Assembly: GCA_025355565.1 (NCBI GenBank)
Contig: JANXZK010000002.1
Coordinates: 15,238 to 79,237 of the forward strand
Length of the DNA: 64,000 nt
Origin: a bacterium
Lineage (GTDB): Bacteria; Patescibacteriota; Minisyncoccia; Phycocordibacterales; PALSA-1337
Reading direction: 5' to 3'
The position numbers and the translations under genes are program-made. Position 1 is the first letter of the stretch. The number at the start of each line of letters is the position of its first letter. Below the pieces are notes generated by a model, which made no database searches, had not been told where the DNA came from, and worked only from the letters and a program-made list of their open reading frames with translations. Below are positions 1,064-53,946 of this stretch, piece by piece.

Positions 1064-2074
1064 TTATTTAGCCTTCGTTTTCTTTATCTTCTTTCTCCCT
1101 TTTGCGCTTTCTATAGCTCTCTGCGCCGCTTCGTCAAAATCAACGTCCTGTTTCGCTTCGATCTGCTTGTACTCATCGAATTTCTTCTCCGCCATTTCCT
1201 TCATGAGTTCATGGGAGATTTTACCCGCATCTTTCAAGATATTCCTATCATTGATGGTCAAAAAACCATGTAACTTTTCTACCCAGTCCTTCATAGTCAT
1301 CGGTATTCGTTTCATGGCTTGTCCATCGGCGAACACTAGATATTGTTCAACTAGATTATCTAACTGCAACAGCTCCTGTTCAGTTAGATAATTTTTTGCG
1401 ATAACAACCTCCTCCTTCGTCGGCTTCGCCCCTCTAAAATTGGTGAGCCCCAGATACTTCTTACGGCTATCTACCCTCCCAACTACTATCTCTGCTGTTG
1501 TTTTTCCAGTGATCGCGAAATGCACTTTGTTCTGAACTGTTTTAAAGAACGAAATGCTCTCTTCGTTTGTCGGGTCATAATCGACACTGGTCGCGTATAT
1601 ATCAGTGATCTTACGATAGAATCGCTTCTCTGATGTGCGGATATCAGCTATACGTCGAGTCAATTCCTCGAAATAGTCAAACGGTAAGTCAGGATTCTTC
1701 AGACGTTCATCATCAAGTATGAATCCTTTCACTATATATTCCGATAATCTTTCCGTGGCCCATTTACGGAAAGCGGTGCCTTGTGAGGATTTTACCCTAT
1801 ATCCGACGGCAATAATGAGGTCCAAATTGAAATAATGTGTAGGTTTTTCCAGAAAATCGGAATTTCCGATTTTCTGCATAGTCTCACGTTCCACAAGTTC
1901 ACCCTCTTTGTATATATTCAAAATATGTTCGTTGATAGTCGACCTAGCCTTGCCAAATAACTGTGCCAGGAGATCCAACGTCAACCACACAGTATCACCG
2001 TCAAACCGCACATCTATCTTGACGTGACCCTGCGAATCTCTATATATGACGATCTGTGAATTGAGATTTTTCAT
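1064..2074 (-). CDS. RhuM-family (virulence RhuM) protein
   Basis: Strong match to the RhuM family: IYRDSQGHVKIDVRFDGDTVWLTLDLLAQLFGK...INEHI, FNLDLIIAVGYRVKSSQGTAFRKWATERLSEYIVKGFILDDERLK. I placed the start at the internal Met (MKNLNSQ) because the longer ORF (to 2233) overlaps the upstream gene. Confidence 0.8.
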   Translation of the reverse strand: MKNLNSQIVIYRDSQGHVKIDVRFDGDTVWLTLDLLAQLFGKARSTINEHILNIYKEGELVERETMQKIGNSDFLEKPTHYFNLDLIIAVGYRVKSSQGTAFRKWATERLSEYIVKGFILDDERLKNPDLPFDYFEELTRRIADIRTSEKRFYRKITDIYATSVDYDPTNEESISFFKTVQNKVHFAITGKTTAEIVVGRVDSRKKYLGLTNFRGAKPTKEEVVIAKNYLTEQELLQLDNLVEQYLVFADGQAMKRIPMTMKDWVEKLHGFLTINDRNILKDAGKISHELMKEMAEKKFDEYKQIEAKQDVDFDEAAQRAIESAKGRKKIKKTKAK

Positions 2075-2123
2075 TATTCTTTCATCTATATCATTTCCGC
2101 CACCGTCTGTTTCCTGCCCCGGT

Positions 2124-3248
2124 TTACACTGATAATAGATCCTTCGGCGTAACGATGCTAGCTTTCGCATGCGGATACAGTTCTTCAAATTGTGAAAAAG
2201 ATACATCCTTACCGCCGCTCCATTTGCATTCATAGGCGGAGATAGTGGTACCTTTTTTTTCGATCACATCGATCTCATGTCCTTTTCTAGTCCTCCAAAA
2301 CATTATTTCCGGAGGAAAAATAGACAGATTTGTTCCCTCTTTTATCTTCTCACTCACGAAATAATTTTCAAATATGGAGCCAGTATCTTTGCGGTCAATT
2401 AGCGGAGTCTCTATATCGACCAATGCATTCCTGACTCCGACATCCAGAAAGAATATCTTAAAAGCTTTCTTCAGCTCTGTTCTTGGATCATTGGAAAACG
2501 AACGTACTATCCTCACGATGAATGACTGCTCCAGCAATCGTATATATCTCTGTACGACAGATCTACTCACACCTAATTGTGTCGCCAATTCGTTGAGCGA
2601 CACCAACTGGCCGACTTGCAAGGCAAGCAGTTTGAGAAGATCCTCGAATGCACGAGGGTTTCGTATCGCCTCGAATATGAAAACGTCCTTATACAGATAC
2701 TGTGTGGCGATATTTTTTAGCACGATCTTCTTTTCTTCAATAGTGGATGCAGCGACAACAGCTGGATATGCGCCATATAGGATAAGTTCGTGAAGTCCTT
2801 TCATATCCACGCTTCTAGACACCTTTATTTCATCCAACGAAAGCGGTAGTAACGTGAACTCAAAGACTCTCCCCGTCATTGGTTCCTTTATCTTGTTTGA
2901 TAGATCAAATGACGAAGACCCCGTAGCCACTATCTGAACACCAGGATATGTATCATGAAATGCCTTAAGAATAGCTCCGATATCTTGGATAGTTTGTGCC
3001 TCGTCGAACACGACGATCTTTCTTCCCTCAACAAGCGGCAGTAATTCGTCTGGTTTCCCCACCACGAAATGTTTCCTGACATCCGCTAACTGGCAATCAC
3101 AATAGGCCCCATCCTTCCCAAACACTCCGACTATCTTCTTGACGAGGGTTGTCTTTCCAGATTGCCGAGGGCCCAAAATGGCCAACATCCTCCCTTTAAA
3201 CAAAGATTCGTTGATCAATCCCTCAATTTGGCGTTTGAATATAAGCAT
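2124..3248 (-). CDS. AAA+ ATPase of the COG1373 family (AAA_14 + DUF4143)
   Basis: Walker A ILGPRQSGKTTL, Walker B VVFDEAQ, and the C-terminal DUF4143-like part. The start may instead be the upstream Met at 3299. Confidence 0.75.
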   Translation of the reverse strand: MLIFKRQIEGLINESLFKGRMLAILGPRQSGKTTLVKKIVGVFGKDGAYCDCQLADVRKHFVVGKPDELLPLVEGRKIVVFDEAQTIQDIGAILKAFHDTYPGVQIVATGSSSFDLSNKIKEPMTGRVFEFTLLPLSLDEIKVSRSVDMKGLHELILYGAYPAVVAASTIEEKKIVLKNIATQYLYKDVFIFEAIRNPRAFEDLLKLLALQVGQLVSLNELATQLGVSRSVVQRYIRLLEQSFIVRIVRSFSNDPRTELKKAFKIFFLDVGVRNALVDIETPLIDRKDTGSIFENYFVSEKIKEGTNLSIFPPEIMFWRTRKGHEIDVIEKKGTTISAYECKWSGGKDVSFSQFEELYPHAKASIVTPKDLLSV

Positions 3249-3367
3249 ATTATGACTATTGTAACAAATTGCTCTTTGAAGAGCAATTTGTATACTCACC
3301 TTATTTTGGAGCTTTTTGATGCAAATTGTAACTGGACATTAGGTTTAAACTAAGTTCCACAAGGAGC

Positions 3368-4594
3368 TTATAGCTCCCACGGGTATACAGTCATTGTTCT
3401 GTCTTTATTTTCTCCATATAGAGCCACTGTCTTGTAATCACCCGATGCATATTCCCTGGAAAAATACTTCATAGCCGAGGTATCTACGTTAGAAAAATTA
3501 AGTTTCGTTTCTATAGGCAACGGGATATTCTTTTCCTTTAGGATGAAATCTATCTCTCTTTTATCGGTTGTTCTCCAGAAATAAACTTTACTAATTCCGT
3601 GCTTTTTGATCAATTCCGAAAATATGCTTGTCTCGAAAATGTTTCCCAATGTCTCTTTTGGAAATTCCTTTAACCATAATATGCTCATAAGCCCTGTATC
3701 AAAGAAAAAAATCTTGGGTGTCTTGAAGAGCTCCTTCCTCTTGTTCTCGCTGTAGGGTCTAACAAGTTTGATGATGTATGTTTCCTCCAAAAGGAAAAGG
3801 TATTTTTCCACGGTTATCTTTGATAAGTTTACCGTGTTCGCCAATTCTGTCACATTGAGAAGCTGCCCGCTCTGCGACGCTAATACTTCTAACAATCGAT
3901 TGAACTTATCGATTTCTTTTATCTCCGCCAGATCCCTGATATCCTTCTTTATATATGTATCGATGATCTGATTCAGATAAGCGCTTTTCTTCTCTGTATC
4001 AGGGGTTAATACTATTTTCGGATAACCGCCATACCTGACATACTCTTCATAATGAGAAATGAGCTCCGATATCTTTTTTGAGGTATGTATTTCGCCCCAG
4101 TCCACAAAAAAATCTTTGAACAATAACAACTCATCGAACGACAGATTAAATATATCGAAATTCACAGTTCTGCCAACCAAAGAATCCTTGAATTTGCTTT
4201 TGATATTGAAACTAGACGAACCGGACACGATCAGTTTGATTTCTTTGTGATGATCGGCAATGATCTTGAGAAATGACGAAGGGTTCTCAAGGTATTGGAT
4301 CTCATCTATGAATACGAACAGTTTTTTTGGTGAGATCGCTAATCCCTCCTCCTTTAGATATGACAAGAACGACTCAACACCGTCATCCAAAATTTCCTTA
4401 AGCCGACTATCTTCGAGATCGATAAAGTGTGCTGATTCCCCTTTTTCTTGAACGATTTTCGCTAAATAATACAGAATATGAGTCTTACCGACTTGTCTCG
4501 CGCCATGAAGTACGATGATATCATCAGTAAACAAATACGGCGCTATTTTATCGATTATGATTCTTTTATACAATATTTCTGGGATTTTGATCAT
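3368..4594 (-). CDS. AAA+ ATPase of the COG1373 family (AAA_14 + DUF4143), paralog of the adjacent gene
   Basis: VLHGARQVGKTHIL Walker A, VFIDEIQ Walker B, and the same architecture as 2124..3248. It is strongly AT-rich compared with its neighbours. Confidence 0.75.
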   Translation of the reverse strand: MIKIPEILYKRIIIDKIAPYLFTDDIIVLHGARQVGKTHILYYLAKIVQEKGESAHFIDLEDSRLKEILDDGVESFLSYLKEEGLAISPKKLFVFIDEIQYLENPSSFLKIIADHHKEIKLIVSGSSSFNIKSKFKDSLVGRTVNFDIFNLSFDELLLFKDFFVDWGEIHTSKKISELISHYEEYVRYGGYPKIVLTPDTEKKSAYLNQIIDTYIKKDIRDLAEIKEIDKFNRLLEVLASQSGQLLNVTELANTVNLSKITVEKYLFLLEETYIIKLVRPYSENKRKELFKTPKIFFFDTGLMSILWLKEFPKETLGNIFETSIFSELIKKHGISKVYFWRTTDKREIDFILKEKNIPLPIETKLNFSNVDTSAMKYFSREYASGDYKTVALYGENKDRTMTVYPWEL

Positions 4595-12825: not shown

Positions 12826-13632
12826 TTATTTCAACGAATACCTACTCCATCTCCTTTCCCCTTCCTTCATGATGAGACCCCTACTAACCAGATCCAGGAG
12901 CTCACGTTGAATAGTCTTCTCGCTGCAATCTTTGATGACTTTGGCAAAGTCTTTGATGGTAAGATTGCTCTGCGTCTTTAGGACATTCAGGATCGTCTCT
13001 TGTCTATTTGTTTTCTTCTCCCGAATCGATATGTGTCCTTGAATAGATGTTCTATTGCTTGATACTTCATACTTCACACCCCCCGCCTGTCCTTTAGCAT
13101 CACCTTGGTTGGGATTGCCGCCACTCCTACTATCCAATCTAAAGCCTGAGCTAAACAGATCAGGTGTCTTAAAGAATGACTCTGACAGCACGTAACCAGC
13201 CTTTTCGGCACTCTGAGCGAGACGGTCACGGAGCATAGCGACAACGAGATCGATCTCTCTCACGAGCAATCCATGATTCATGTCAGAAATAAGGTTGGAG
13301 ATCTTGGCAACATTCAATAGCGAAAGAGTTTCCAGTGCCGCGGTGAAGATAGACTGGATGACGCCGCTCTTGTCTCCAGGGACTGAACTCGATGCCGTAA
13401 AGGACGAAGAGAGAAGATCTATACCGCGATCTCGCAATTCCCACTTGATCGGCTCGTCATCCTTGAGAAGTCCAGAAACGAGATAGAGCGCAGCAGTGAT
13501 CTTTTCTGTCTTTTTGAATAGATAGACCAGATAGTCTTCAGCCGAGAAAAACCCCAATGATTTCCAGTTTAATGGGTTACTGAACGAGTCTGGGTTGTTT
13601 GTCTCTTTGTTGTCCATATTTGTCTTTTCCAT
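12826..13632 (-). CDS. Hypothetical protein with C-terminal winged-helix DNA-binding-like region
   Basis: 268-aa ORF. The C-terminal ETILNVLKTQSNLTIKDFAKVIKDCSEKTIQRELLDLVSRGLIMKEGERRWSRYSL resembles a wHTH. It is divergent from ftsK. Confidence 0.45.
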   Translation of the reverse strand: MEKTNMDNKETNNPDSFSNPLNWKSLGFFSAEDYLVYLFKKTEKITAALYLVSGLLKDDEPIKWELRDRGIDLLSSSFTASSSVPGDKSGVIQSIFTAALETLSLLNVAKISNLISDMNHGLLVREIDLVVAMLRDRLAQSAEKAGYVLSESFFKTPDLFSSGFRLDSRSGGNPNQGDAKGQAGGVKYEVSSNRTSIQGHISIREKKTNRQETILNVLKTQSNLTIKDFAKVIKDCSEKTIQRELLDLVSRGLIMKEGERRWSRYSLK

Positions 13633-13785: not shown

Positions 13786-16158
13786 ATGATAATAACAATC
13801 AAATCACCACTAACCATCATGGCAAAGAAAAAAGATACAGATAGGGCATCAAAGACGCATCTCTTGGATGACATGAACACGGGGACAGTGCAGACGATAT
13901 TTGCCATACTATCATTCCTCGTGACAGTGATCGCGCTCCTAGCCGCATTCGGCAAAGCTGGCGTCGTCGGAGACTATGCATTTATGTTCTTCTCCAGAAT
14001 GTTCGGCATCGGCTACTATCTCATTCCTTTGGTATTTGCCATGCTGGGAATCACTTTCTTGCAGGGTGTAAAGAAGCGATTTGAGATCTCAAAAGGCATC
14101 GGTGCCCTCCTATTCTTCCTGTCCGGATTGGGACTCATCCACATCGCCTACGGAGGAGCCGGGGGGGTCTTTGGACGCATCATCGACTACCTGTTCCTAA
14201 AATCTATAGACACTATCGCCACGACGATACTCATGGTCGCGCTCCTCGTCATCTCCGTGTTCATGACATTTAACCTGCACCTGTCATGGGACATGATCGC
14301 GATATGGAGAAAGAAGGGATTGACCGAAGATGAACTGGAGGTCATGGCGAGAAAGAAGAGGGGTGACATCGAGGATGACTCGATCGAGAAACTAGCCGCG
14401 GCGGCAAATGCCAAGGATGCTGACGGACTCTCTGCTCGAGAGATCGAGGCAGCAGCGGCAAAAGCTCGCACGGATGCTCTGGCGGCAGAAAAGAGGAGGA
14501 AGAGTGGTAATGGCGCGCTCGGACTCGATCTATCGGATGATGACGAAGCTGGGTTTGCTTCTTCGATGTCGATGCCGAGCCTGAAACCGTTCACTCCTCC
14601 ACCATTGTCACTGCTCGAGAAAGATCGCGGTAAACCTGAGACCGGAGACATCAAATCCAACGCCAACATCATCAAGCGCACTCTACAAAATTTCGGTATC
14701 ACTGTGGAGATGGACGAGATATCGATCGGACCATCAGTCACTCGATACGCTTTGAAACCCGCAGAAGGCGTGAAACTTTCCCGCATCGTCGGACTGAACA
14801 ATGACCTCTCTCTAGCTCTCGCCGCCCACCCTATCCGTATCGAAGCACCGATACCCGGCAAGTCTCTAGTCGGCATCGAAGTCCCGAACACTGCCAAAAC
14901 CACCGTCGGTCTAGCTACACTCTTGGCCGCCACAGATTTCCAAGGATCGGAGAAACCATTGCTCGTTTCACTAGGCAAAGATATCACTGGCGATGCGCAT
15001 TTTAGTAATGTCGGAAAAGCTCCGCACATGCTCATAGCTGGAGCGACCGGATCCGGAAAATCAGTGACTATCCACACCATCATCACTTCTCTCCTATATC
15101 GCAATTCCCCACAGAGCCTGAAGCTCATAATGATAGACCCCAAACGCGTAGAATTGACCCTATACAACAAAATCCCGCACTTGCTGACTCCTGTTATCAC
15201 TGACCCGAAAAAGGCCATTCTAGCTCTAAAATGGGCCGCCAAAGAGATGAGTCGCCGTTACGATATCCTAGAGAAGAATACCGCGCGAGACATCGATTCG
15301 TACCACAAAAACATTCTGGCACCCGCAGTCGCCAAATGGAAAATGGGAAATGGAAAATGGAAAAATGACAAAACAGACAGCACAAATAAATCCGCGACCG
15401 ACGCTGGCCCCACCGCACTTCCTGAGACCATGCCATATATCGTCATCGTCGTCGATGAATTGGCTGATATCATGCAGTCATATCCTCGCGAACTAGAGTC
15501 CGCGATCGTCAGGCTCGCTCAGATGAGTCGCGCCGTTGGTATCCACCTCATCATCTCCACACAGCGTCCGAGCGTGAACGTCATCACCGGTCTCATCAAA
15601 GCCAACATCCCGACCCGTATCGCTCTCCAAGTCGCTTCTCAGATCGATTCACGTACCATCATCGACCAGATGGGTGCGGAAAAATTACTCGGTGCCGGTG
15701 ACATGCTCTACCTCGGCGGGGAGATGTCCAAACCTATCCGTCTGCAATCAGCTTATATCTCCGAATCAGAAGTCAAGAAAGTCGTGAAATACATCGTCGA
15801 CCAATACAAAGACGAGATCAATGACACCATCAACTTTGCCGCCACACCTACCGAAGCTGGTGCCACGGCCGCATTCGATGCCATGAGCGACAGCGACTCA
15901 CTCGATGACGATGATGACATGTATGAACCGGCGAGAGAGATGGTCATCACCAACAACCGAGCTTCGACTTCCTTGATCCAGCGCAAGCTCGGCATCGGAT
16001 ATTCGAGAGCGGCCAAGCTCATGGATATGCTCGAGGAGCGTGGAGTCATCGGTCCAGCAAATGGTTCAAAGCCGCGAGAGATCATCGGAGTTGGTGGTCC
16101 AACAGAATTACCGCCGTCCAACATCGAAGATGGCAGTGCCCAAAACTTGACGATCTGA
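13786..16158 (+). CDS. ftsK: DNA translocase FtsK/SpoIIIE
   Basis: N-terminal TM helices, Walker A LIAGATGSGKSV in the motor domain, and a C-terminal gamma domain LIQRKLGIGYSRAAKLMDMLEERGVIG. The start may instead be the Met at 13819 (MAKKKD). Confidence 0.9.
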   Translation: MIITIKSPLTIMAKKKDTDRASKTHLLDDMNTGTVQTIFAILSFLVTVIALLAAFGKAGVVGDYAFMFFSRMFGIGYYLIPLVFAMLGITFLQGVKKRFEISKGIGALLFFLSGLGLIHIAYGGAGGVFGRIIDYLFLKSIDTIATTILMVALLVISVFMTFNLHLSWDMIAIWRKKGLTEDELEVMARKKRGDIEDDSIEKLAAAANAKDADGLSAREIEAAAAKARTDALAAEKRRKSGNGALGLDLSDDDEAGFASSMSMPSLKPFTPPPLSLLEKDRGKPETGDIKSNANIIKRTLQNFGITVEMDEISIGPSVTRYALKPAEGVKLSRIVGLNNDLSLALAAHPIRIEAPIPGKSLVGIEVPNTAKTTVGLATLLAATDFQGSEKPLLVSLGKDITGDAHFSNVGKAPHMLIAGATGSGKSVTIHTIITSLLYRNSPQSLKLIMIDPKRVELTLYNKIPHLLTPVITDPKKAILALKWAAKEMSRRYDILEKNTARDIDSYHKNILAPAVAKWKMGNGKWKNDKTDSTNKSATDAGPTALPETMPYIVIVVDELADIMQSYPRELESAIVRLAQMSRAVGIHLIISTQRPSVNVITGLIKANIPTRIALQVASQIDSRTIIDQMGAEKLLGAGDMLYLGGEMSKPIRLQSAYISESEVKKVVKYIVDQYKDEINDTINFAATPTEAGATAAFDAMSDSDSLDDDDDMYEPAREMVITNNRASTSLIQRKLGIGYSRAAKLMDMLEERGVIGPANGSKPREIIGVGGPTELPPSNIEDGSAQNLTI

Positions 16159-16198
16159 TCACTGGATTTGATCCCGCATCCATATATCGACGACTCAT

Positions 16199-16579
16199 AT
16201 GACCAGAACTTCTCTCATTCGATCGATCAAGATCATCGCCTCCGCATTCGCGGCACTACTCATCATCGCCTTCGCTGTTTGGCGCTCGCTCGATTACGCT
16301 CGAGGACCGAAAGTTACGATCAGTTTACCCACGAACGGCGCGGAGATCACAGCAAAATATGTAACCGTGAAAGGCCGAGTCGAGAGAGCCAATGATCTCC
16401 TCATAAATGGCAAAGAGATCAACGTCGACGAGCATGGCAATTTTTCCGATAACATCGTGGTCTTCCCTGGTATAAATGTGATCACTGTGACCGCAAAAGA
16501 TCAGTTCGGTAGGTCAGTCAAGGATCAGCTGACTTTGATTGGCAATGATGGCTCATCTTCTACGAGTCTCACAAATTGA
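16199..16579 (+). CDS. Hypothetical small membrane-anchored protein
   Basis: 126-aa ORF with an N-terminal TM helix and a β-rich C-terminal domain. Confidence 0.45.
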   Translation: MTRTSLIRSIKIIASAFAALLIIAFAVWRSLDYARGPKVTISLPTNGAEITAKYVTVKGRVERANDLLINGKEINVDEHGNFSDNIVVFPGINVITVTAKDQFGRSVKDQLTLIGNDGSSSTSLTN

Positions 16580-16684
16580 GCAACACAAAAGGATAAAGGG
16601 GACTTGTGAGCGCGACTGGCGCGAACACGAGGAATTTTTCAGCAGAAAAATATCCGTGCCCCTGAGTCCTTTTGTGTTGCTCAA
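16576..16684 (+). promoter_or_regulatory. Long nested stem-loop (18-bp perfect inverted repeat with a 73-nt structured spacer) between the upstream gene's stop and recA
   Basis: TTGAGCAACACAAAAGGA (16576-16593) pairs perfectly with TCCTTTTGTGTTGCTCAA (16667-16684). The spacer holds sub-hairpins (gcgcgactggcgcg; tttttcagcagaaaaa; ggggac...gtgcccc). Confidence 0.4.
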
Positions 16685-21574: not shown

Positions 21575-22399
21575 CTATATCCCGAAGAGCTGCTTTGCAT
21601 TCTGTAGTAACTGTTTTGCAACTTTCGCTTCGTCTTCACCACGAATTTTGGCGATCTGCTTCACCACTTCGATGACATAAACTGGCTCATTCCGCTGACC
21701 TCGATAGGGTATCGGCGACACGAACGGACAATCTGTCTCTGTCAATATCTTTTCGAGTGGCACAGACCTGATCAGTTCGTCATAGTCACGAGTGAAAGTG
21801 ATCACACCAGTAAATGAAATGCTGCATCCAGCGGCTAATACATTCTCCATGTCCTCCTTCGAACCAGAGAAAAAGTGAAAGTCCGCCGGAACTTTGGCAT
21901 GATCTTTGAGGATTTGAATAGCGTCGGCGTATGCATTCGGAGTATCTTGAATAGCCGCAGCCGGATTATTCGCGACTATTTTCCTCTTTATATTCCTGAC
22001 ATGCAACATGAGAGGTTTGCCCACACTATTCGCAACCTCGATATGCTGGATGAATACTTTCTCCTGAATCGCCATCTCTCCAGGACTCGTTGCTCCAGAA
22101 TATTCCAATCCACACTCACCTATCGCCACAACCTCGTCGTGCTTGGCGAGCGCGGTGAATGCTGGAATATCGAACATCTCATCTCCCCTCGAACCATCAG
22201 TCTCCGTTGGATGTAGACCGACCACGGCCCACATATGATCATGGCCTTCTGCCAATTTGACACAATCATTCGATGAAACTATATCTGTTCCGACTACGAC
22301 GATGCCGACACCAGCATCATGTGCTCGTTTTATCACTTCATCCCTATCTACGTCATATTCAGGAAAATTGATATGACCGTGTATGTCTATGTAATTCAT
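21575..22399 (-). CDS. TatD-family metal-dependent hydrolase/DNase
   Basis: N-terminal IDIHGHINF His motif, the TIM-barrel hydrolase pattern, and a C-terminal ETDCPFVSPIPYRGQRNEP. Confidence 0.85.
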   Translation of the reverse strand: MNYIDIHGHINFPEYDVDRDEVIKRAHDAGVGIVVVGTDIVSSNDCVKLAEGHDHMWAVVGLHPTETDGSRGDEMFDIPAFTALAKHDEVVAIGECGLEYSGATSPGEMAIQEKVFIQHIEVANSVGKPLMLHVRNIKRKIVANNPAAAIQDTPNAYADAIQILKDHAKVPADFHFFSGSKEDMENVLAAGCSISFTGVITFTRDYDELIRSVPLEKILTETDCPFVSPIPYRGQRNEPVYVIEVVKQIAKIRGEDEAKVAKQLLQNAKQLFGI

Positions 22400-22403
22400 A
22401 CCT

Positions 22404-23907
22404 CTATTTTCTCAAGAATAACGGCTTTTCTGGCATTTTATTTTCACGAATACAAACCAGGATCTTCTCTGCAGTCTCAGGTAAAAATGGCAACAACATA
22501 ACCGCGATCTCATTCAATGATGTTACGAGCTCGATCATCAACTTTACACCCTTTTCTCTATCAGTTTTGACGAGTGTGAAAGGCTGATCTTTTTGGATCT
22601 TCTGGTCGAGTGATGCGATCTTTTCCCAAACGACATTCATCGCTTTTTGTAGATTGAAACTCTCTATCGCCTCAAAGAATTCTGGACTCTGAAGACCGGC
22701 GAACTCGTTTGAATCCTGAATCTTGAATCATGTGCGCTTCCGCCATCTTCATGATCCTCGACGTCAGATTGCCGATACCGTTTGCTAACCCGGCATTGTA
22801 TGCTTCTTTGAATTTTTCTATAGTAAATGGGCTGTCTTCAAATGGGTGCAATTCCTTGGTTACAAAATACCTGAATGCGTCAGTACCGAATTCGGCCACG
22901 ACATTCATCGGATTGACGGTATTACCCAGAGATTTGGACATCTTCACACCCCCTTCACCTGTGACAAAACCATTGATGACGATGACCCTAGAAGGCGTGA
23001 GCCCGACTGCCATGAGCATAGCTTGCCACATTGCGGACTGTTGGCGCAGATTGTCCTTACCACAATACTGCGCTGCGCCACCGGTTTCTGTCCACCATTT
23101 CACGAACGTCTTCTGGTCATGAGGCCAACCGATCGCTGAGATATAGTTGACCAGAGCATCGAACCAGACGTACATAACATGCGTAGGGTCGCCAGGTACA
23201 GCTATGCCCCATGGCATCTTGCTAGCGAGTCTGGTCACACTGAAATCCTCGAGTCCCCTTTCGACAAAGGCACGGATCTCATTTAGCCTAGAATTAGGAA
23301 TGACAAATGAGTGCTTGCTCTCGGCGTTCGCTTCCGACGAGGCACCACGCTCATAGAGATCCATGAGAGCCTTTTGATACACGCTGAAACGAAAGAAATA
23401 ATTCTCTTCTTCGATGACTTCTATGCTCTGCAATGGATGCAGTGGACAGCGACCATCTACTAGTTCCGACTCTGTCTTTTCCAGTTCACAACCTACACAG
23501 TATTTTATAGAATAATTCTTCTTGTAGATGAGACCATTCTTGTCGGCGATCTTCCAGAATTCCTGCGCCGCCAACACGTGATGTGGATCAGTAGTACGCG
23601 TAAAAGTAATTTCTGACATGATCCCCAATCGAGGCAACATCTCTCTGAATTTGGCGGCCGCGGCATCAACATAGGTTTGCGGATCCAGGTGTTCTTGGAT
23701 AGCCTTTTGATAGATTTTCACACCATGTTCATCTGTTCCTGTATTGAAAAACACGTCAAAACCCATGAGTTTCTTGTACCTTGCGATCACGTCAGCTCTC
23801 ACGAATTCTAGCGCATGGCCGATGTGCGGCTCTGCGTTTACATACGGCAAAGTCGTAGTGATGTAAAATGGCTTTTTTGCAGCTACCTTGGGCACTTTTT
23901 TTATCAT
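22404..23907 (-). pseudogene. metG: Methionyl-tRNA synthetase interrupted by a +1 frameshift (7-bp tandem duplication at ~22708-22727)
   Basis: The N-terminal ORF (22672..23943) has PYVNAEPHIGHA and VKMSKSLGN. The C-terminal ORF (22404..22640) encodes the anticodon-binding helices ...LLPFLPETAEKI. The two frames overlap at GATTCAaGATTCAgGATTCA; removing 7 nt restores one continuous MetRS (…HMIQDSNEFAGLQSPEFFEAIE…). Confidence 0.8.
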
Positions 23908-23971: not shown

Positions 23972-25066
23972 CTATCTCCCAGCCTTTTCCAAAACTGCCC
24001 TTTCGGCCCTCTCGGCATTTTTGTACTTCTCAATGTCATTTATATACTCCATGAGGGCCGCTGACAGAGGTACCGCGATCAGAGCTCCGAGGACACCAGC
24101 GAGTTTAGCTCCGATCACCAAGGCGAGGATAACTACGATCGGTGATATGCCAACGATCTTTCGCACCACCAGTGGATAGAAAACCTGACTTTCTAGTTGA
24201 TAGATGATGAGGTAAAGTCCGACCAAGAGCAGTCCGATACCGAGTCCTCTATCTGTAAAAGCAAGGAGGATCGGTGGTATCGAAGAAATGATCGGTCCGA
24301 ATATTGGGATGATCTCTAAGATCGCCGCTAGTAAAGCAAATAAAAGGGCGTGATTGATGCCAACGGAGATTAACAGGATATACACCAGGATACCGACAAC
24401 AATACCCAAGATGACTTGCCCTTGGAGCCACAAAGCGATCTTGCGTTGGGAACGTTTCCAAAGGTCGATGATGTAATCATGATGTTTGACTGGAGCGACA
24501 ATGCGTAAAAAGTCATCTACTCCTTCTTCTTTGACAGCCAAGTAGAATGACAGAACCACGATCAAAATGAAACTAAACAAACCACCGAATACGGCACCGG
24601 CGGTCTGGAACAGTGTCTCACTGCTTCCTACGACCAATGCACGCAATTGGTTAACTATGTCAGATAGAGACAGTACGTGTTCTCCGAAACTGTAAGACGA
24701 CCCGAAATTGAGGCCGATATTGCTGATAGGGCTCCACAATTCTTGGAACGAAACCGTTTTTGGCAATGTTGCCAAGAAATTCGTCGCATCGCTCACGATG
24801 AGAGGCATAAAGAATATGAGTATTCCGGCAAGGACGAGCGCGAGCACAACGTATATGCCGATGACACTGGCGATCCTATGGATTTTTCGCCTCTTTAGGC
24901 GTCTCACTAGTGGCTCGATAGCGGAAGCGATGACAACGGCGGCCACGATGACTACCACCACATCAAACAGATAGTATATCGCCGCGAGCAGGACCAGGAT
25001 CAAGAAGAACCGGATGATCGTACCCGTACTCACATTGATCTTCGTTGATGAAACTGGTTCTGGCAT
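23972..25066 (-). CDS. AI-2E family transporter (PerM/UPF0118) membrane protein
   Basis: ~8 TM helices and the typical AI-2E family topology. I placed the start at the internal Met (MPEPVSS) to avoid overlap with the upstream gene. Confidence 0.7.
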   Translation of the reverse strand: MPEPVSSTKINVSTGTIIRFFLILVLLAAIYYLFDVVVVIVAAVVIASAIEPLVRRLKRRKIHRIASVIGIYVVLALVLAGILIFFMPLIVSDATNFLATLPKTVSFQELWSPISNIGLNFGSSYSFGEHVLSLSDIVNQLRALVVGSSETLFQTAGAVFGGLFSFILIVVLSFYLAVKEEGVDDFLRIVAPVKHHDYIIDLWKRSQRKIALWLQGQVILGIVVGILVYILLISVGINHALLFALLAAILEIIPIFGPIISSIPPILLAFTDRGLGIGLLLVGLYLIIYQLESQVFYPLVVRKIVGISPIVVILALVIGAKLAGVLGALIAVPLSAALMEYINDIEKYKNAERAERAVLEKAGR

Positions 25067-25103: not shown

Positions 25104-26375
25104 TTAATCAAACTTGAAATATGGCTTGAAAACCTCTGCATCCTTGAATTTCCCTATGATCGCCAAGTTTAGACCGCTATTCACAAATATCTCTCTGGCC
25201 AATTTCCTAACATCCGCCGCTGTCACTAAACTGACTTTCTTCATGAATTCTTCGGGTGTATCGATCTCTTGCTTTAGGATCTCCTGAAAGCCACAGTATT
25301 CGGCTCGCGATTCTGAAGTCTCGAGCTCGAGGAGTGTAGTGCCGGAAATATAGTCCTTCACTTTCTTGAGTTCGGCATCACCTACTAGCTCATCTTTCAA
25401 AAGGGCGCACTGTTTCAAAATCTCTCTGATAGCCTCCTCGACACGTGCATTGTCGACACCAGCGGAAATAGAGAGATCTCCATGATCAGTGAATGGATCA
25501 TGTGCGGCACGAATGTAATAACAGATGCCCATCTCATCTCGGAGCTTGCTGAAAAGCCGAGAGCTCATTCCTCCACCGAGGATCGTTGTTAGAACTGTCA
25601 TAGTTGGGATCCTCCTATCACTGATGGCGAACGTTCGCGTAGCGATAACTAGATACGTCTGATCTGTTTCCTTGTAATGCGTTCTTATCGCTGGAGATTT
25701 CTGATCTTCTACAACAGCGAGTTTCGGTCTTTTCTCATCGTTCTTGACAGTGACAAACGTTTTCTCGATCATTTTTATCGTCTCTTTTTCATCAAACGAG
25801 CCCGCTACAAGAACCGTCGTAGCACTGCTAACATAATGGTCTTTCCTATATTTTATAAAATCGTTGCGATCGAACGATCTCACGCTATCCTCAGTTCCGA
25901 GAACACTCCATCCTGCCGGCTGATCCCCGAACATGAGTTCGGACATGATCTCGTGAACATGTCGCTGTGGGAGATCGTTATACATGCGTATTTCTTCGAT
26001 GATCACTCCTTTTTCCTTAGTGATCTCCGTTTCTTTGAACAATGGATTCATGTACATATCCCCCACCACGTCCAGTGCTTGATCGAGGTGATCGGAAGCA
26101 ACTTTCGCGTAGTATCCTGTGAATTCTTGAGTCGTGAATGCGTTGTATTGCGCGCCGAGAGAGTCGAGCTCGCGCGAGATGTCGCTAGCTTTTGGACGTC
26201 GCGGTGTTCCTTTGAACACCATATGCTCCAAAAAATGAGATATGCCGTTCTGTTTCACCGTCTCATATTTCGATCCCGCTTCGACCATGACGAGTACTGT
26301 CACTGAAGGATTGTCAGGCATAGGCACAGTTATCACCCTGAGCCCGCTTTTAAAAATGGTCTTATTGAATTTCAT
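25104..26375 (-). CDS. M16-family zinc peptidase (insulinase-like)
   Basis: Inverted zinc motif HFLEHMVFKGT (HxxEH) near the N-terminus, and length 423 aa. Confidence 0.8.
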   Translation of the reverse strand: MKFNKTIFKSGLRVITVPMPDNPSVTVLVMVEAGSKYETVKQNGISHFLEHMVFKGTPRRPKASDISRELDSLGAQYNAFTTQEFTGYYAKVASDHLDQALDVVGDMYMNPLFKETEITKEKGVIIEEIRMYNDLPQRHVHEIMSELMFGDQPAGWSVLGTEDSVRSFDRNDFIKYRKDHYVSSATTVLVAGSFDEKETIKMIEKTFVTVKNDEKRPKLAVVEDQKSPAIRTHYKETDQTYLVIATRTFAISDRRIPTMTVLTTILGGGMSSRLFSKLRDEMGICYYIRAAHDPFTDHGDLSISAGVDNARVEEAIREILKQCALLKDELVGDAELKKVKDYISGTTLLELETSESRAEYCGFQEILKQEIDTPEEFMKKVSLVTAADVRKLAREIFVNSGLNLAIIGKFKDAEVFKPYFKFD

Positions 26376-30489: not shown

Positions 30490-33400
30490 TCATGAAATAC
30501 TGAGCTTCAGTTGTAATCCCCCAACGTTCGAGAAATCGCCAGTGATATTTGCAAAAGAGATGCTCTTTGTCGAAGTCGCCGAAAGAATAGCCCTTTCGTT
30601 CCTCTCGATGAATATACGCCCCTCGCCGCTAGTTTCCACCTTGAGATCGATCTTGTCGCTCACAGTGAGACCTTTTTGTTTGCGCAGATCTTGGATAGCA
30701 CGGACGAGTTCACGAACAGTGCCTTCTTCCTTGAGGGCCGATGTGATGGCTGTGTCCAATGAGACTTTGTAACCACCAGAATCGATGAACAGATGCCCAT
30801 CCTTTTCTGTGATTCCAACATTCGATGGTTCTGTGAACTTGCGTGAGATTACGTTTTTGACATTCAATTTATCCTTGACGATGTCTCTAAAATCATCGGT
30901 GATGTCCACTATCTTTGATCTCGACTTTGCCTTGGCCGTCGAGTTTGATGTAGAACTCATGCTATTGAAACCCAATTCATAAGTCAGACTAGCGAGAGGT
31001 TGGCGTACACCTATCTTCTTGAATGATCTGAGTGACAGAGCAACTTCAACGATCTTTCTGGTCGTCTCCATATCATCTAAAAGTTTCTGATCGAACCTTC
31101 TTACTTTTGGCCAATCCTCCAAATGCACGCTCTCAACCCTACCTCCTTCCGTACCACCACTTTCTCTGTAGAGATATTCTGCGAAAAATGGGGCAAATGG
31201 TGCCATCACTTTTGATAGAGTGATGAGCACATATCGGAGTGTCATCATGGCCTGAGCTTTCCCAACATCCCCGCCATCATGACCGCCCTTAAATCGATCA
31301 CGAGAGCTCTGCAAGTACCACTGAGAAAGATCTGCGACAAAATCCTTGATGGCACGCGACGGTTCCATGAATCTGTATGCGTCTAGATTCGCTGTAACCG
31401 TCCCGACCAATTGATCCAATCGCGCAATGATCCATTTATCCAGGACATTTTGCGATTCAAATCTGCTATTTTGATTTTTAAACTTTCCATTCTCATCGTA
31501 CAGTTTGTAAAATGAAAGCACATTATCAACCATATTGAATACTTTTTTCACCACTTCATCAACAGTTTTTTCTTCAAAATTCTTGGAATCTCCCGGTTGA
31601 TTGACTGAGTACATCCAAAATCGCAGCGCGTCTGCGCCGTATTTATCCATCATCGTGATCGGATTTACGATATTGCCTATAGACTTGCTCATCTTCTTGC
31701 CTTTCTCGTCGAGAAGGTGACCGAGACAGATGACATTCTCATAAGCTCTACCCTTACCCATGATCGTACCGACCGCATGCAACGTGTAAAACCAGCCACG
31801 AGTCTGATCGATCGCTTCTGAGATAAAATCGGCTGGATAATTGGTCTTCTCCACGAATTTCTTGTTCTCAAATGGATAATGATCCTGTGCGAATGGCATA
31901 GAACCAGAATCGAACCAGACATCCATCACTTCCTTGGCACGAGTCATGACACCACCACATTTACATGGCAACTTCACGGCATCGATGAATGGTTTATGCA
32001 GGTCGAGCTCGAAATCAGCATTGTGTGGAAGGATAGAGAAATCTACTGGTCTGACCTCTGCATTTTTTAAGAGGTCTCCAAGATTCGACTCGACACACTG
32101 CGTGTGGTCAAGTCCCCTGGCGGCACCGATCAACATGCCACCGGACAATTCATGCGTCACGATCAGAATCGTTTTACCTTCATATTGTTTGTCTACATCA
32201 TAAATAAAACCGCCCATACGTTTCTTCACGTCTCCCCAGTTCTCGAGACCACCTGGTCTAACTGTAAACCTGTCACCGTTGGTCGAATCTTTGAGGAATT
32301 TATAGAAATCATTGATACTGCGCCCACTCCATGACTTACAATCGATCTCCTGGATGCGTGAATCTTTGATCACATGCCGCTCATCTAGGCCAAGAGTATT
32401 TCTCACCATGTCTGCTGTTTCTAGAGTGCGGATAAATGGCGAAACAATGATCATATCGATGTGTCTTTTTTTGAGAGTTAATGCGGTCTTTTGAACTTGG
32501 ATGCGTCCTTCTGCCGTCAGATGATATGGGTCTCCAGGATCGCTGCTTACAATATCTTTCGTATTATTCTCCGCTTCTCCATGTCGCATGACGAAATATG
32601 TGTTATTTGGCTTTTTCGCAATATCCGCGACAGACCCTACAACCCTCTTCTCATGACAGGTATCACACGTCCACACGGGTAATGGCGTACCCCAATAACG
32701 TTCGCGAGATATCGCCCAATCCTTAACCTCACGCAACCATTCACCAAACCTTCCCTCTTTGATGTGTTCTGGTTCCCAATGGATTTCTTTGTTTTCTCTG
32801 ACGAGTTTCTTGCGGAGTTCTGACATGCGGATATACCAACTGTCCCTCGCGAAATATATGAGCGGAGTATGACATCGCCAACAAAACGGATATGTATGCT
32901 CATATTTTTCCTTCGCGAACAAGAGTCCACGACCCGCGAGATCTTTGATGATCGCGACATCGGTATTCGGATCTTTCACGAATGCGCCCGCGAGGAACCC
33001 AGTCTCCTTCTTGAATGTTCCATCGTCATTCACCAGATGATATTTCGGTAGTCCAACTTTCGTCCCAATCTCAAAGTCATCTTGACCATACATAGGTGCG
33101 AGATGCACTATCCCTGTACCATCTGCCGTCGTGACAAAATCTGCGGCATAAACTTTGAATGCATTCGTGAGCTTTTCGCTTTCAGTGCCTTTTACATTGT
33201 CCTTCAAAAATGGGTAGAGTGGTTCATATGAGAGACCGGCGAGTTCGGAACCTTTGATAGTTTCGATGATCTCCGGATTGTTAAATCTATCTCTCAAAGC
33301 GTCAAACCGATCTTTCGCGAGGATCAAGATCTCGGTTGGTATATCTGCTCGTGCCACTCTGATCTTCACATAGTCGATCTCTTCTCCGATCGCTAGCCCA

Positions 33401-34131
33401 ACATTTCCGGGCAGTGTCCACGGCGTCGTCGTCCAAGCGAGCAACGATATAGGTAAATCCGGATCACTAATTTTCAATCTAAACTTGACATACAAGGAGA
33501 GATCCTTGACCGTCTCATACCCTTGGGCCAACTCATGTGAAGACAATCCCGTGCCACAACGAGGACACCACGGGACAACTTTGTAATCTTTATATAACAG
33601 ATCTTTGTTGTCTGCTTCCTTGATGACATTCCAGACTGATTCGATGAATTTTGGCTTGTAAGTGATATAAGGATCTTTGAGATCTACCCAATAGCCCATG
33701 CGGTTTGTAAAATCCTCCCATTCATGGACATATTTCCAAACACTCTCTTTGCATTTGTCATTGAAAGCGCTGATACCATATGTTTCTATCTCTTTTTTGG
33801 ATTTGAGACCGAGTTCTTTCTCCACCTGCAATTCTACCGGCAATCCATGTGTATCCCAGCCCCCTTTCCTGCGCACATGATATCCACGCATAGTCTTATA
33901 ACGTGGGATAGCATCTTTGAATGCACGGGCTTCGAGATGATGGATACCTGGATGACCATTGGCTGTTGGTGGTCCCTCATAAAAGACGAACTCGCCTTTC
34001 GGAGACTTTTTCGATAGAGATTTCTCGAATATTCCCTGTTCTTTCCAGAATGTCAAAACCTTCTCCTCGCGCTGTGCGTGGGAGGATTTTGGGACATTGT
34101 TCAGCTTTTCACTATTTAAAGTTTTCATCAT
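30490..34131 (-). CDS. ileS: Isoleucyl-tRNA synthetase (type 2) carrying an inserted histidine-phosphatase (PGAM-family) domain
   Basis: PPTANGHPGIHH (HIGH), VPWCPRCGTGLSSHE, WAISRERYWGTPLPVW, DVWFDSG and KMSKSIGN. An insertion of ~190 aa (aa ~508-700, nt ~32034-32610) has RHGEAENN, SPFIRTLETA and ILIVTHELSGG, the histidine-phosphatase signatures. Confidence 0.88.
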   Translation of the reverse strand: MMKTLNSEKLNNVPKSSHAQREEKVLTFWKEQGIFEKSLSKKSPKGEFVFYEGPPTANGHPGIHHLEARAFKDAIPRYKTMRGYHVRRKGGWDTHGLPVELQVEKELGLKSKKEIETYGISAFNDKCKESVWKYVHEWEDFTNRMGYWVDLKDPYITYKPKFIESVWNVIKEADNKDLLYKDYKVVPWCPRCGTGLSSHELAQGYETVKDLSLYVKFRLKISDPDLPISLLAWTTTPWTLPGNVGLAIGEEIDYVKIRVARADIPTEILILAKDRFDALRDRFNNPEIIETIKGSELAGLSYEPLYPFLKDNVKGTESEKLTNAFKVYAADFVTTADGTGIVHLAPMYGQDDFEIGTKVGLPKYHLVNDDGTFKKETGFLAGAFVKDPNTDVAIIKDLAGRGLLFAKEKYEHTYPFCWRCHTPLIYFARDSWYIRMSELRKKLVRENKEIHWEPEHIKEGRFGEWLREVKDWAISRERYWGTPLPVWTCDTCHEKRVVGSVADIAKKPNNTYFVMRHGEAENNTKDIVSSDPGDPYHLTAEGRIQVQKTALTLKKRHIDMIIVSPFIRTLETADMVRNTLGLDERHVIKDSRIQEIDCKSWSGRSINDFYKFLKDSTNGDRFTVRPGGLENWGDVKKRMGGFIYDVDKQYEGKTILIVTHELSGGMLIGAARGLDHTQCVESNLGDLLKNAEVRPVDFSILPHNADFELDLHKPFIDAVKLPCKCGGVMTRAKEVMDVWFDSGSMPFAQDHYPFENKKFVEKTNYPADFISEAIDQTRGWFYTLHAVGTIMGKGRAYENVICLGHLLDEKGKKMSKSIGNIVNPITMMDKYGADALRFWMYSVNQPGDSKNFEEKTVDEVVKKVFNMVDNVLSFYKLYDENGKFKNQNSRFESQNVLDKWIIARLDQLVGTVTANLDAYRFMEPSRAIKDFVADLSQWYLQSSRDRFKGGHDGGDVGKAQAMMTLRYVLITLSKVMAPFAPFFAEYLYRESGGTEGGRVESVHLEDWPKVRRFDQKLLDDMETTRKIVEVALSLRSFKKIGVRQPLASLTYELGFNSMSSTSNSTAKAKSRSKIVDITDDFRDIVKDKLNVKNVISRKFTEPSNVGITEKDGHLFIDSGGYKVSLDTAITSALKEEGTVRELVRAIQDLRKQKGLTVSDKIDLKVETSGEGRIFIERNERAILSATSTKSISFANITGDFSNVGGLQLKLSIS

Positions 34132-45942: not shown

Positions 45943-46854
45943 CTATCTTGCTTTCCACCTGGCAAATATTCCCGCCGGCAAGAGTCTGTTTACTGTCTGC
46001 TGTTTACTGTTTACTGTTTCTCCTATCGCCAACTCCCCTATCTCTATCATTCCACCGAATTTCGCGACGAGCGGCAACAGATTATTTTCGTACGCCGTGG
46101 CTGAGTAGCCAGCAGAGTATCCATTGATCAAAAAGAGGAGCGGTTTCGGAGTCAATAGTTCTACACATTGGTCGACGAGTGGCAAGAAATGTTCCTCGAT
46201 CTTCCAGAGCTCATTGTCTGTGCCGTGTCCAAAGGCTGGCGGATCCATGATGATGCCATCGTATTTGTTGCCACGTTTCACTTCGCGTCGGACAAACTCC
46301 CTTGCGTCATCCAGTATCCAGCGCACAGGTTTGTCTTTGAGACCGGAAAGCTCCGCATTTTCTCGAGCACCAGTCATCGCTGTCTTTGAACTATCTACAT
46401 GCACCACGTTCGCTCCGGCTCGCGCACAAGCGAGAGTTGCGCCGCCGGTGTAACCAAATAGATTAAGGATCTTCATTTCCTTAGGCTTTAGAGAATTTTC
46501 GATTTGCGCTTTCAACCACTCCCAATTCGCTGCTTGCTCAGGAAATATGCCGACATGTTTGAACGCCGATGGTTTGACCCACATCTTGAGGCCACCAAAT
46601 TCTATAGACCACTTATCCAGCTTGCCATTTTTCATCAGCCACTTGCCGTCATTGCCGTCACGAGCGAAACATCCATCTGCCTTCTTCCATTTCTCTTCAC
46701 TCAGCTTTTTATGCCACAAAGCCTGAGGATCTGGTCTAGAGAGCACGATACTGCCAAATCTCTCCAGCTTCTCTCCTTCTCCGGAGTCGAGAAGAGCATA
46801 ATCTTTGGAAGATTCGGTTATTAGGATGTTCGATGTTTTTATTGAATCGGTCAT
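45943..46854 (-). CDS. Class I SAM-dependent RNA methyltransferase (RlmI/RlmK-like, PF10672)
   Basis: ILNLFGYTGGATLACARAGANVVHVDSSKTAM (SAM motif I), IIMDPPAFGHG (motif IV DPP). Confidence 0.7.
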   Translation of the reverse strand: MTDSIKTSNILITESSKDYALLDSGEGEKLERFGSIVLSRPDPQALWHKKLSEEKWKKADGCFARDGNDGKWLMKNGKLDKWSIEFGGLKMWVKPSAFKHVGIFPEQAANWEWLKAQIENSLKPKEMKILNLFGYTGGATLACARAGANVVHVDSSKTAMTGARENAELSGLKDKPVRWILDDAREFVRREVKRGNKYDGIIMDPPAFGHGTDNELWKIEEHFLPLVDQCVELLTPKPLLFLINGYSAGYSATAYENNLLPLVAKFGGMIEIGELAIGETVNSKQQTVNRLLPAGIFARWKAR

Positions 46855-49575: not shown

Positions 49576-50634
49576 CTATAAAATCTTTCGATATCTCGCT
49601 CCCCTGCCTTGGCCGATCAGCTCAAGCAAGCGCAACTCGACAAGGCGCGCTAGATTTTTCTTTATACCTTCCCGGCCCAAGTCTTTCACTTTTTCATCGA
49701 GATCAGAGATGCTCAAGGACTCATCAGCCTTAAAGAGACCAAGGATTTTCTCCTGACTTTCTGCGAGCAGCTTCTCCGGTTGTTCACCCTCCATAAGCTT
49801 CCTAGCTTTATTCGCGTGAGTGATCAGTGAATCGAGTAGATAGTTAACCCAATGAGAAACATCCTCATGGTCAGTCTTGTGATCATTCTGCGTCTTGTGC
49901 AAAGCCATATAGTATTCAGCTTTCGTATCCTCGATGATTTCATCCAATGAGACATAAGGAGTATAGGCGTAATCGGACCGAAGCATGAGAAGATTTGTGA
50001 GTGCACGCGAAAGACGCCCATTTCCATCACTGAATGGATGTATGGCCAGAAATTCGAAAATAAAGTTAGCCACGACGAGAATTGGATGAAGTTCCTTCTT
50101 TTCGAACTCCTTCGAAGCCCAGCCAATAGCGGCTTCCATCTCAGATTTCACTAGATACGGCGGAGTGGCACGGAAGACGATTACTCGCTCTCCTTTTTCA
50201 TTGACTGCCTCGACCGCATTCTCACCAGCTTTATATTTTCCTTTGTGTGACTGATCCTTGGCGGAATAGTTCAGCAAGATACTGTGAAAATGCAGGACGT
50301 TATTTTCCGTCAATTTGAGATCTTTGTAGTTATCAAAGATTCTGCCGATAAGGTCAGCGTACCCAGCTACTTCCTGCTCATCTCTATTCCTGGGAGGATT
50401 GGATTTTAGACCACGCAAAAACCTGGCAATCTCCTCGTCAGTCATCTGAGCACCTTCAATACGCGTCGAGGCACCCGTCGAAGTGATAATGACAGTTGAG
50501 CGCAATCTTTTTAGAATTTGCGGATTCAGATTGATGCTACCCTTCCAAAGACCTTTGAATTCATCGAGTTTGGCTATCTTTGAGAGTATCTCCGGTGTGA
50601 TCCTAATCCTCTTATTAAAGCGATTTTCTTCCAT
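49576..50634 (-). CDS. Fic-family protein
   Basis: Canonical Fic motif HPFSDGNGRLSRAL. Confidence 0.8.
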   Translation of the reverse strand: MEENRFNKRIRITPEILSKIAKLDEFKGLWKGSINLNPQILKRLRSTVIITSTGASTRIEGAQMTDEEIARFLRGLKSNPPRNRDEQEVAGYADLIGRIFDNYKDLKLTENNVLHFHSILLNYSAKDQSHKGKYKAGENAVEAVNEKGERVIVFRATPPYLVKSEMEAAIGWASKEFEKKELHPILVVANFIFEFLAIHPFSDGNGRLSRALTNLLMLRSDYAYTPYVSLDEIIEDTKAEYYMALHKTQNDHKTDHEDVSHWVNYLLDSLITHANKARKLMEGEQPEKLLAESQEKILGLFKADESLSISDLDEKVKDLGREGIKKNLARLVELRLLELIGQGRGARYRKIL

Positions 50635-52887: not shown

Positions 52888-53946
52888 TCAGTTACCAATG
52901 AGATAATTATTGGCTGCGAATCTGTATTGATCGATAAATATCTGTTTGAATGGTGCCATTGAATTCAATTCATAAAAGACGAGGACTGCTTCGCGATAAT
53001 CATCTTCATTTACGCTTCTATATGACAAAGGAGCACGATCGTAGGCCAGTAATACCGCGTTTGCCATCAAACGTGATGTCCGCTTGTTGCCATCCTCGAA
53101 AGGTTGTATATAACTCAATCCGAGAGTGGTAAGCAAGGATTTTTCATAGCTCGATTCGAGTCTGGATACTGCCTTTGAAAGCTTGCCCATCGCTTCGCGG
53201 ATCTGGTACACATTGTCAAGTGGTCGATATATCGATCCCGTTACGCCCACAGGACTAGAGCGGAGTCCGAAATTCACATCCATATCTTTAACTAGAATTT
53301 TATGGATTTCTTCAACTTTCGGCAGAGTCAACTCTCTGAAATCATTGGAATTTGATCTAATGAATTTGAAAGCGTCCTTGTGATTCAAGATCATTTGCGC
53401 TTCCTTTCTGTCATGTCCTGACGCTTCTTTGCCCTCGAGGATGAGCTTCTCTGTGTCGAGTAATGTATATGTGTTACCCTCGATCTTTGAGGATTTCCAT
53501 GATAGTTCAATGATGAATCGCTCGAGTTCTTTTTCTTTTAGTGCACCGGAGATGCCCTCCACACGCTTTCTATATTGTAAAGTGAGATGTTCCATTTCAG
53601 CTAATTCTTTGACAGAGAGCAAGGGAACATGAATAGAGTCGAATAGTTCGAAATTGTAATCCTTGAGGCCGTATCGCGTATCAGGTTCGGTCTGATTATA
53701 TACATGAGCATCAATTGAGATATTTATTCTTCCGAATGTAGTGATGTTGTATTTTACAGATCGGCCCGCACCACTAGAAACGATTAGACCGGAATTCTTC
53801 ATGAGTGACAACTCTCGTTTTACGGTGATCAATGAAACGTCGCCCCCGCTTGAGCGCAGTTTTTCATGTACTTCTGAGGACGACATCTTCCCTCTTTCGA
53901 GAAAAATCTTCAAAATTAATAAGTGTGGTTGAGGGATATTTTCCAT
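52888..53946 (-). CDS. Fic-family protein with N-terminal winged-helix DNA-binding domain
   Basis: Fic motif HPFEDGNKRTSRLMANAVLL. The N-terminus has HTH-like SSEVHEKLRSSGGDVSLITVKRELSLMKNSGLI. Confidence 0.75.
   Translation of the reverse strand: MENIPQPHLLILKIFLERGKMSSSEVHEKLRSSGGDVSLITVKRELSLMKNSGLIVSSGAGRSVKYNITTFGRINISIDAHVYNQTEPDTRYGLKDYNFELFDSIHVPLLSVKELAEMEHLTLQYRKRVEGISGALKEKELERFIIELSWKSSKIEGNTYTLLDTEKLILEGKEASGHDRKEAQMILNHKDAFKFIRSNSNDFRELTLPKVEEIHKILVKDMDVNFGLRSSPVGVTGSIYRPLDNVYQIREAMGKLSKAVSRLESSYEKSLLTTLGLSYIQPFEDGNKRTSRLMANAVLLAYDRAPLSYRSVNEDDYREAVLVFYELNSMAPFKQIFIDQYRFAANNYLIGN

Follow-up and report, generated by a model that had tools for sequence, protein, structure and literature searches.

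MetRS is essential. How, then, should a metG gene that is broken over two reading frames be understood? The question is raised by a 64-kb stretch of DNA (the window, which here means the whole of the stretch that was analysed), in which the locus and its surroundings read as follows:

22404-23907, minus strand: metG, whole locus.
22672..23907, minus strand: N-terminal reading frame of metG, from the ATG at 23907 to the TGA at 22672-22674; 411 aa (P0006).
22709..22729, minus strand: heptanucleotide array GATTCAA-GATTCAG-GATTCAA, 3 units in 21 nt, with the frame change inside it.
22675..22707, minus strand: 11 out-of-frame codons (RVRRSSESRIL) that lead from the array to the premature stop.
22672-22674, minus strand: premature TGA that closes the upstream frame (CTT TGA G).
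22404..22727, minus strand: C-terminal part of metG, in the +1 frame; 107 codons followed by the TAG at 22404-22406.
21575..22399, minus strand: tatD-family gene, starting 4 nt past the metG stop.

The original prediction held that metG is split over two frames with the second in +1, and the open reading frames of the window bear this out. Translation likewise confirmed that both frames give IQDS across the repeat. It had also been claimed that removing one 7-nt unit fuses the frames; deletion of any 7 nt inside the array does produce a single 498-aa ORF. Such a fused, two-unit protein was not found in the 90% cluster of the window's protein. The 411-aa ORF contains PHIGH, the CxxC…CPLH knuckle, KMSKS and the first anticodon-domain helix. 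Its product matches PF09334 with an E value of 5.7e-87, and the HIGH and KMSKS motifs, which are invariant in an alignment of MetRS relatives (A1), place a catalytic Rossmann domain in this fragment. The remaining helices of the anticodon-binding domain are encoded in the C-terminal part, which gene callers report solely as a 78-aa piece from the ATG at 22640 (P0122). The anticodon-binding domain of the window is therefore divided between two frames at 22709-22729 and is complete in neither. The premature TGA derives from conserved F-F-E codons (TTC TTT GAG) of the true frame. Three explanations had been offered for the lesion: an assembly or sequencing artefact in a repeat, recent pseudogenization, and a slippage-prone site with phase-variable or frameshift-rescued expression. 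Our analysis favors the first and argues against a settled pseudogene and a programmed frameshift, and a real but unfixed slippage variant remains the main rival.

Is metG also broken elsewhere in the same population? The 90% cluster of P0006, which comes from one 86,225-nt NCBI contig, has just one other member, the 505-aa P0121. This protein is made up of the window's two pieces, identical, but reading …AEAHM-IQDSGFK-IQDS-NEFAGLQ… through the loop (…MIQDSGFKIQDSNEF… across the array), and its residues 399-505 are 100% identical to the window's 107 downstream codons. P0121 is encoded by Logan contigs of SRR23617162, SRR23617163 and SRR23617164 and by NCBI GCA_043724765.1. Each of them has the array GATTCAA GATTCAG GATTCAA GATTCAG GATTCAA, that is, 5 units in 35 nt, or 2.5 copies of a 14-nt period. 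Relative to this intact allele, the window has lost one 14-nt period (two units), and the loss can be placed anywhere inside the array. Tandem Repeats Finder describes what is left as period 7 with 2.9 copies. Between the flanks CACAT and ACGAG, the span is 31 nt with 3 units (CACAT+21+ACGAG) and 45 nt with 5 units, and the 23-mer TGATTCAAGATTCAGGATTCAAA is diagnostic of the 3-unit junction. The lesion had been described as a 7-bp tandem duplication. Since the intact allele of the same population has 5 units and not 2, that description had both the direction and the size wrong: a 5-unit array has contracted by 14 nt.

The tract lengths seen were thus 5 units in four assemblies and 3 units in one. 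No alleles of 2, 4 or 6 units were found in the 90% protein cluster or in a scan of JGI metagenomes, and a JGI scan that asked for both array flanks with a gap of 14-44 nt, hence for any tract length, returned no match. The best match in a scan of GTDB representatives was 77%. P0006 and P0122, the truncated products, have one NCBI contig as their only recorded source, with no record from any Logan or ENA assembly; when the last 66 aa of the truncated protein served as the query, the search returned 5 unrelated short fragments and missed P0006 itself.

How far does the disagreement between the window and the other assemblies extend? Contigs L001, L005, L002 and L003 align to the window with 0 mismatches in 10,036, 13,514, 8,791 and 5,949 nt, respectively, and one 14-nt gap. 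Two more, L004 and L006, have 1 SNP each beside the 14-nt gap; that of L004, at 22563 in the downstream part of metG, is synonymous. The comparison is extended by L087, L088, L089, L120 and L121, with 0-1 SNP each and no gap. Altogether, other assemblies (at least 5 sequencing runs or assemblies) cover 3786-59326 of the window, or 55.5 kb; each assembly differs by 0-1 SNP, and the sole indel is the metG array. The neighbor of metG is this same tatD-family gene in all other assemblies; hence, the locus is otherwise undisturbed.

We observed that the contigs of the other assemblies repeatedly stop at the same places (~18886, 16117-16632, 24820-24873 and 26180-26302) and that the window's contig runs through them. 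Two Logan runs both end at 18886, beside a repeated 15-mer (18874/18941). The pattern suggests that the window's contig comes from a different assembler, sample or co-assembly than the others. This contig (86 kb) is the more contiguous one and may represent a different sample, with a possibly differing population.

What distinguishes the array from the rest of the window? We re-inserted the 14 nt and listed the repeated k-mers across the 64 kb. The restored window has 5 repeated 21-mers. Four come from two inverted-repeat hairpins (16572/16668 and 19894/19921), and the only direct repeat is GATTCAAGATTCAGGATTCAA, at 22709 and 22723, the two copies being the first and the last 21 nt of the array. 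No repeats were found in the restored 64-kb window at a k of 25 or more. A single pass through GATTCAAGATTCAGGATTCAA instead of two yields the window's sequence, base for base. Hence, the sole discrepancy and the sole direct 21-mer repeat coincide, and the discrepancy lies at the one place that is ambiguous at a k of 21 or less. Such a pattern, in which assemblies of one genotype disagree only within an exact repeat that a small k leaves ambiguous, matches a local assembly error. The smallest k is usually 21 in MEGAHIT and metaSPAdes, and IDBA-UD starts from 20. Logan contigs, which we take to be built at a k of 31, would find a 21-nt repeat unambiguous. One point against a collapse is that modern multi-k assemblers usually resolve 21-nt repeats.

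We conclude from these comparisons that the split metG is probably a local repeat-number error, an artefact arising in silico or in vitro, and that the metG of the organism is intact. That the split is not a real feature of the organism is the most likely reading. How might a repeat-number error have come about? In this species, a 35-nt microsatellite, (GATTCAA GATTCAG)x2.5, would encode the variable loop between the first two anticodon-binding-domain helices, with the translation …M-IQDSGFK-IQDS-N…. Within this array, the opening and closing 21 nt are identical at an offset of 14, and a process that confuses the two copies would drop one 14-nt period. This assembly would have dropped one, leaving 21 nt, and the resulting shift of frame would create an apparent 411-aa fragment and an orphan C-terminal piece. 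The likeliest cause would be a de Bruijn graph built at a k of 21 or less, in which the 14-nt self-loop was dropped and the contig was carried into later k iterations or into the final contig. An equivalent error of consensus or amplification could serve as an alternative source of the artefact. In either case, we infer that the 14 nt were lost in silico or in vitro rather than in cells.

Errors of this type have been documented. An "incorrect number of repeats" is listed among the common local assembly errors of MAGs (Chen et al. 2020, Genome Res 30:315, PMC7111523). One CPR genome of 1.13 Mb contained 13 local errors, one of them in a repeat-containing gene (PMC7111523), and at that rate one error in a 64-kb window is unremarkable. 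The metG case resembles those described by Chen et al. in that a short tandem repeat in a coding gene of a CPR/Patescibacteria MAG has the wrong copy number and a spurious frameshift results, and also in that the site falls on an exact repeat whose length is the commonest smallest k-mer size (21). It differs in that their errors were defined by missing read support, whereas ours was recognized by comparing assembled sequences.

Could a population live with the short allele? The restored 505-aa protein aligns end to end with A. aeolicus MetRS of the tRNA complex 2csx (E value of 1e-94). With the minimal bacterial MetRS proteins (A. aeolicus 2csx/2ct8 and T. thermophilus 1a8h), it shares HIGH, KMSKS, the zinc knuckle and a helical anticodon-binding domain, but here a longer, microsatellite-encoded loop follows the first anticodon-domain helix. 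It is in this loop that the break falls (…LANGIGNLTSRIMKMAE|loop|PEFFEAIESFNLQKAMNVVW…). In the 2csx alignment, the remaining helices, including the position aligned to the conserved PW, lie downstream of the break, and the 411-aa fragment is without the helices aligned to the tRNA-anticodon-binding part of 2csx. Work on E. coli MetRS (Trp461 and C-terminal truncation studies) is said to show that such helices are needed for charging tRNA-Met. By analogy, a fragment without the remaining helices should not charge tRNA-Met, and so the allele should not dominate a population that has one metG. Dominance of a truncated allele in a single-copy essential gene is implausible.

The array itself is biologically real. 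It is an intragenic tandem repeat with a unit of 7 nt (period of 14 nt), a length not divisible by 3, and its setting is variable: relatives P0002 and P0007 have loop insertions of roughly 30-45 residues, and in a sister species with 85% identity the homologous site has a degenerate version of this repeat, AATTCAAG-AATTCAAA. The window as a whole has 4 period-7 arrays against 0.19 expected from Markov simulations, an enrichment of about 20-fold. Taken together, the variable loop length, the degenerate sister repeat and the period-7 enrichment indicate that the loop grew by slippage in three-unit (21-nt, 7-aa) steps.

The other period-7 arrays are at 13056-13076 (CTTCATA x2.7), 15333-15364 (AAATGGA x4.4) and 45986-46019 (CTGTTTA x4.9); the second sits within an FtsK-like ORF (13786-16158). 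All three are unchanged in other assemblies (L089, L120 and L121), unlike the metG array.

If slippage built the loop, might it also have removed the 14 nt? A real slipped-strand deletion between the two overlapping 21-nt copies, present in some cells and reported by the assembler, is the main rival to an assembly error because it would remove exactly the same 14 nt at the same place. The slipped allele would have been a sub-population variant or, less plausibly, dominant in that sample. The array is a perfect substrate for slippage, and the period-7 enrichment together with the degenerate repeat of the sister species implies that slippage is a real evolutionary process at this site. The 5-unit array must itself have grown in this way from a shorter ancestor, loop length varies greatly across MetRS relatives, and the zero flanking differences fit a very recent event. 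However, an allele that inactivates a single-copy essential gene is expected near mutation frequency and not as an assembly consensus. The in-frame allele is the one found in all four other assemblies, the truncated products are on record from no Logan or ENA assembly, and the 64-kb window offers no second metG. Cells with the slipped allele would have a non-functional MetRS unless rescued, and the allele would be a transient, dead-end or hitch-hiking variant rather than an evolved state. On balance, we consider a real deletion unlikely. Were the short allele both real and abundant, an essential translation gene would have been inactivated through a repeat, which would be unusual.

We wondered whether the 3-unit allele could instead be functional. 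It might be expressed by +1 ribosomal frameshifting (e.g., at CTT TGA G, by a prfB-like CUU→UUU slip), or it might act as a phase-variation switch for MetRS. In favor, the 7-nt unit is not divisible by 3, and the array was seen at two lengths. Moreover, the upstream frame closes with CTT TGA, the slippery codon and stop of prfB, from which a +1 slip leads back into the true frame at EAIESF…. The likeness to the prfB (RF2) site, CUU UGA C, covers both the CUU UGA that closes the upstream frame and the downstream frame that a +1 slip would restore. Unlike prfB, however, the metG site has no Shine-Dalgarno stimulator, its next base is G and not C, it is not conserved, and the same population has an uninterrupted copy of the gene. 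A frameshift is not required in any of about 120 close relatives or 80 genome loci, CTT TGA results from reading the conserved FFE codons out of frame, and the rescued product would have junk in place of the conserved F…L…PEFF segment. We found no Shine-Dalgarno-like element upstream of CTT TGA and no stimulatory RNA structure at the site, where the local fold is no better than that of shuffled sequences (z = -0.06). With no structure above shuffles, no Shine-Dalgarno-like sequence and no conservation in orthologues, programmed frameshifting was rejected.

Phase variation fares no better. Simple-sequence-repeat contingency loci vary phase by slipped-strand mispairing; examples are the CTCTT repeats of Neisseria opa and the tetranucleotide tracts of Haemophilus. 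The metG array is like them in being an intragenic, non-triplet repeat with two tract lengths, one in frame and one out. Contingency loci, though, lie in accessory genes (surface or restriction-modification) and have long tracts that come in many lengths. By contrast, metG encodes a single-copy essential aminoacyl-tRNA synthetase, which is not dispensable, and has a tract of 2.5 periods and one deviant observation that may not be biological. We know of no precedent for phase variation of an essential housekeeping enzyme. Hence, expression of the 3-unit allele by frameshifting or as a phase-variation switch is very improbable. Equally improbable is a hypermutable tract whose 3-unit, out-of-frame allele is at high frequency in one natural population, where it would provide a reversible on/off switch for MetRS (for dormancy or bet-hedging) or would be expressed at a low level by +1 recoding at CUU UGA.

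The least probable reading of all is a metG that is genuinely split or degenerating, either as two pieces that are made separately and reassemble or as a pseudogene backed by a second metG: the break does fall in a surface loop that tolerates large insertions and gene callers do emit two ORFs, but there is a single lesion without further decay, no second metG in the window, and a whole metG in the identical strain. The sole start for the second piece, the ATG at 22640, lies inside a helix, 29 codons past the break and without a Shine-Dalgarno sequence. No promoter-like site for the C-terminal piece was found on the minus strand. On these three grounds (promoter, Shine-Dalgarno sequence and position of the start), separate expression of that piece was rejected. 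A settled pseudogene is disfavored by the single lesion, by a downstream frame that is 100% identical, and by the lack of any other indel in 55.5 kb; neither multiple lesions nor relaxed constraint downstream, the marks of a decaying pseudogene, were seen. The search for a second metG in the 64-kb window turned up none, the other matches being IleRS and one weak match at 52426-52590. Even taken jointly, functional frameshifting, phase variation and a truly split or backed-up gene retain very little probability.

We also considered whether the window might be generally error-ridden or decaying and rejected this, given that its overlapping ORF pairs are distinct and that it has no other indel against the other assemblies. 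The pairs at 1064/2124 (RhuM and AAA_14-DUF4143), 46898/47352 (VKOR and thioredoxin) and 63083/63355 (RuvX and unknown) are separate genes rather than further frameshifts.

A repeat-number error in metG matters mainly for quality control. A deposited MAG would have a spurious break in an essential gene, and the break would put a 411-aa "MetRS" and a 78-aa orphan into protein databases. The analysis also amounts to a recipe that needs no reads: compare the k=31 Logan contigs of the population and ask whether the discrepancy falls on the sole repeat that is as long as the smallest k of the assembler. Its biological content is that a length-variable MetRS loop can be built from a coding microsatellite.

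In the sister species, one contig (L090:1-180; ENA ERZ28655897 scaffold_25064) starts inside metG; here the same variable loop contains in-frame TGA and TAG codons and lacks an open frame. These stops sit just upstream of …NNSRIQNFTDINNPEFHD…, and the sole called ORF is the 78-aa, C-terminal P0127. The interruption could reflect noise at the end of a contig, or this could be a second copy disrupted in that loop. P0126, which belongs to the same cluster as P0127, is a 352-aa MetRS with an unrelated tail.

Arrays of the GATTCA type were not found besides this metG in about 700 kb of fetched Patescibacteria loci, and their absence from these other loci argues against a lineage-wide element. Exact copies of the 23-mer ATGATTCAAGATTCAGGATTCAA were found in 29 metagenome contigs (L091-L119, from JGI/ENA), in about 14 unrelated contexts with a GC content of 36-60%, far above chance. 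It is often one arm of a hairpin of GATTCAR/TGAATCY heptamers (L091, L098 and L110). L098 has 34 nt in common with the intact metG array, and in L105 a prepilin-like ORF has its first 8 residues (MIQDSGFK) encoded by ATGATTCAAGATTCAGGATTCAA. In environmental bacteria, (GATTCAR)n therefore seems to recur as a microsatellite or hairpin motif.

Three other features of the window deserve mention. An IleRS-like protein of 1213 aa, encoded at 30490-34131 on the minus strand, has a match to PF00300 (His_Phos_1) between its tRNA-synt_1 segments in the Pfam list; a histidine-phosphatase insertion is an unusual domain for an aminoacyl-tRNA synthetase. Two 352-aa Fic-domain paralogues (49576-50634 and 52888-53946, minus strand) flank an RNB (RNase II/R-type) gene at 50794-52839. 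At the start of the window, 1064-4594 on the minus strand encodes a RhuM-family protein followed by two AAA_14/DUF4143 ATPases, a cluster that may be an accessory or mobile island.
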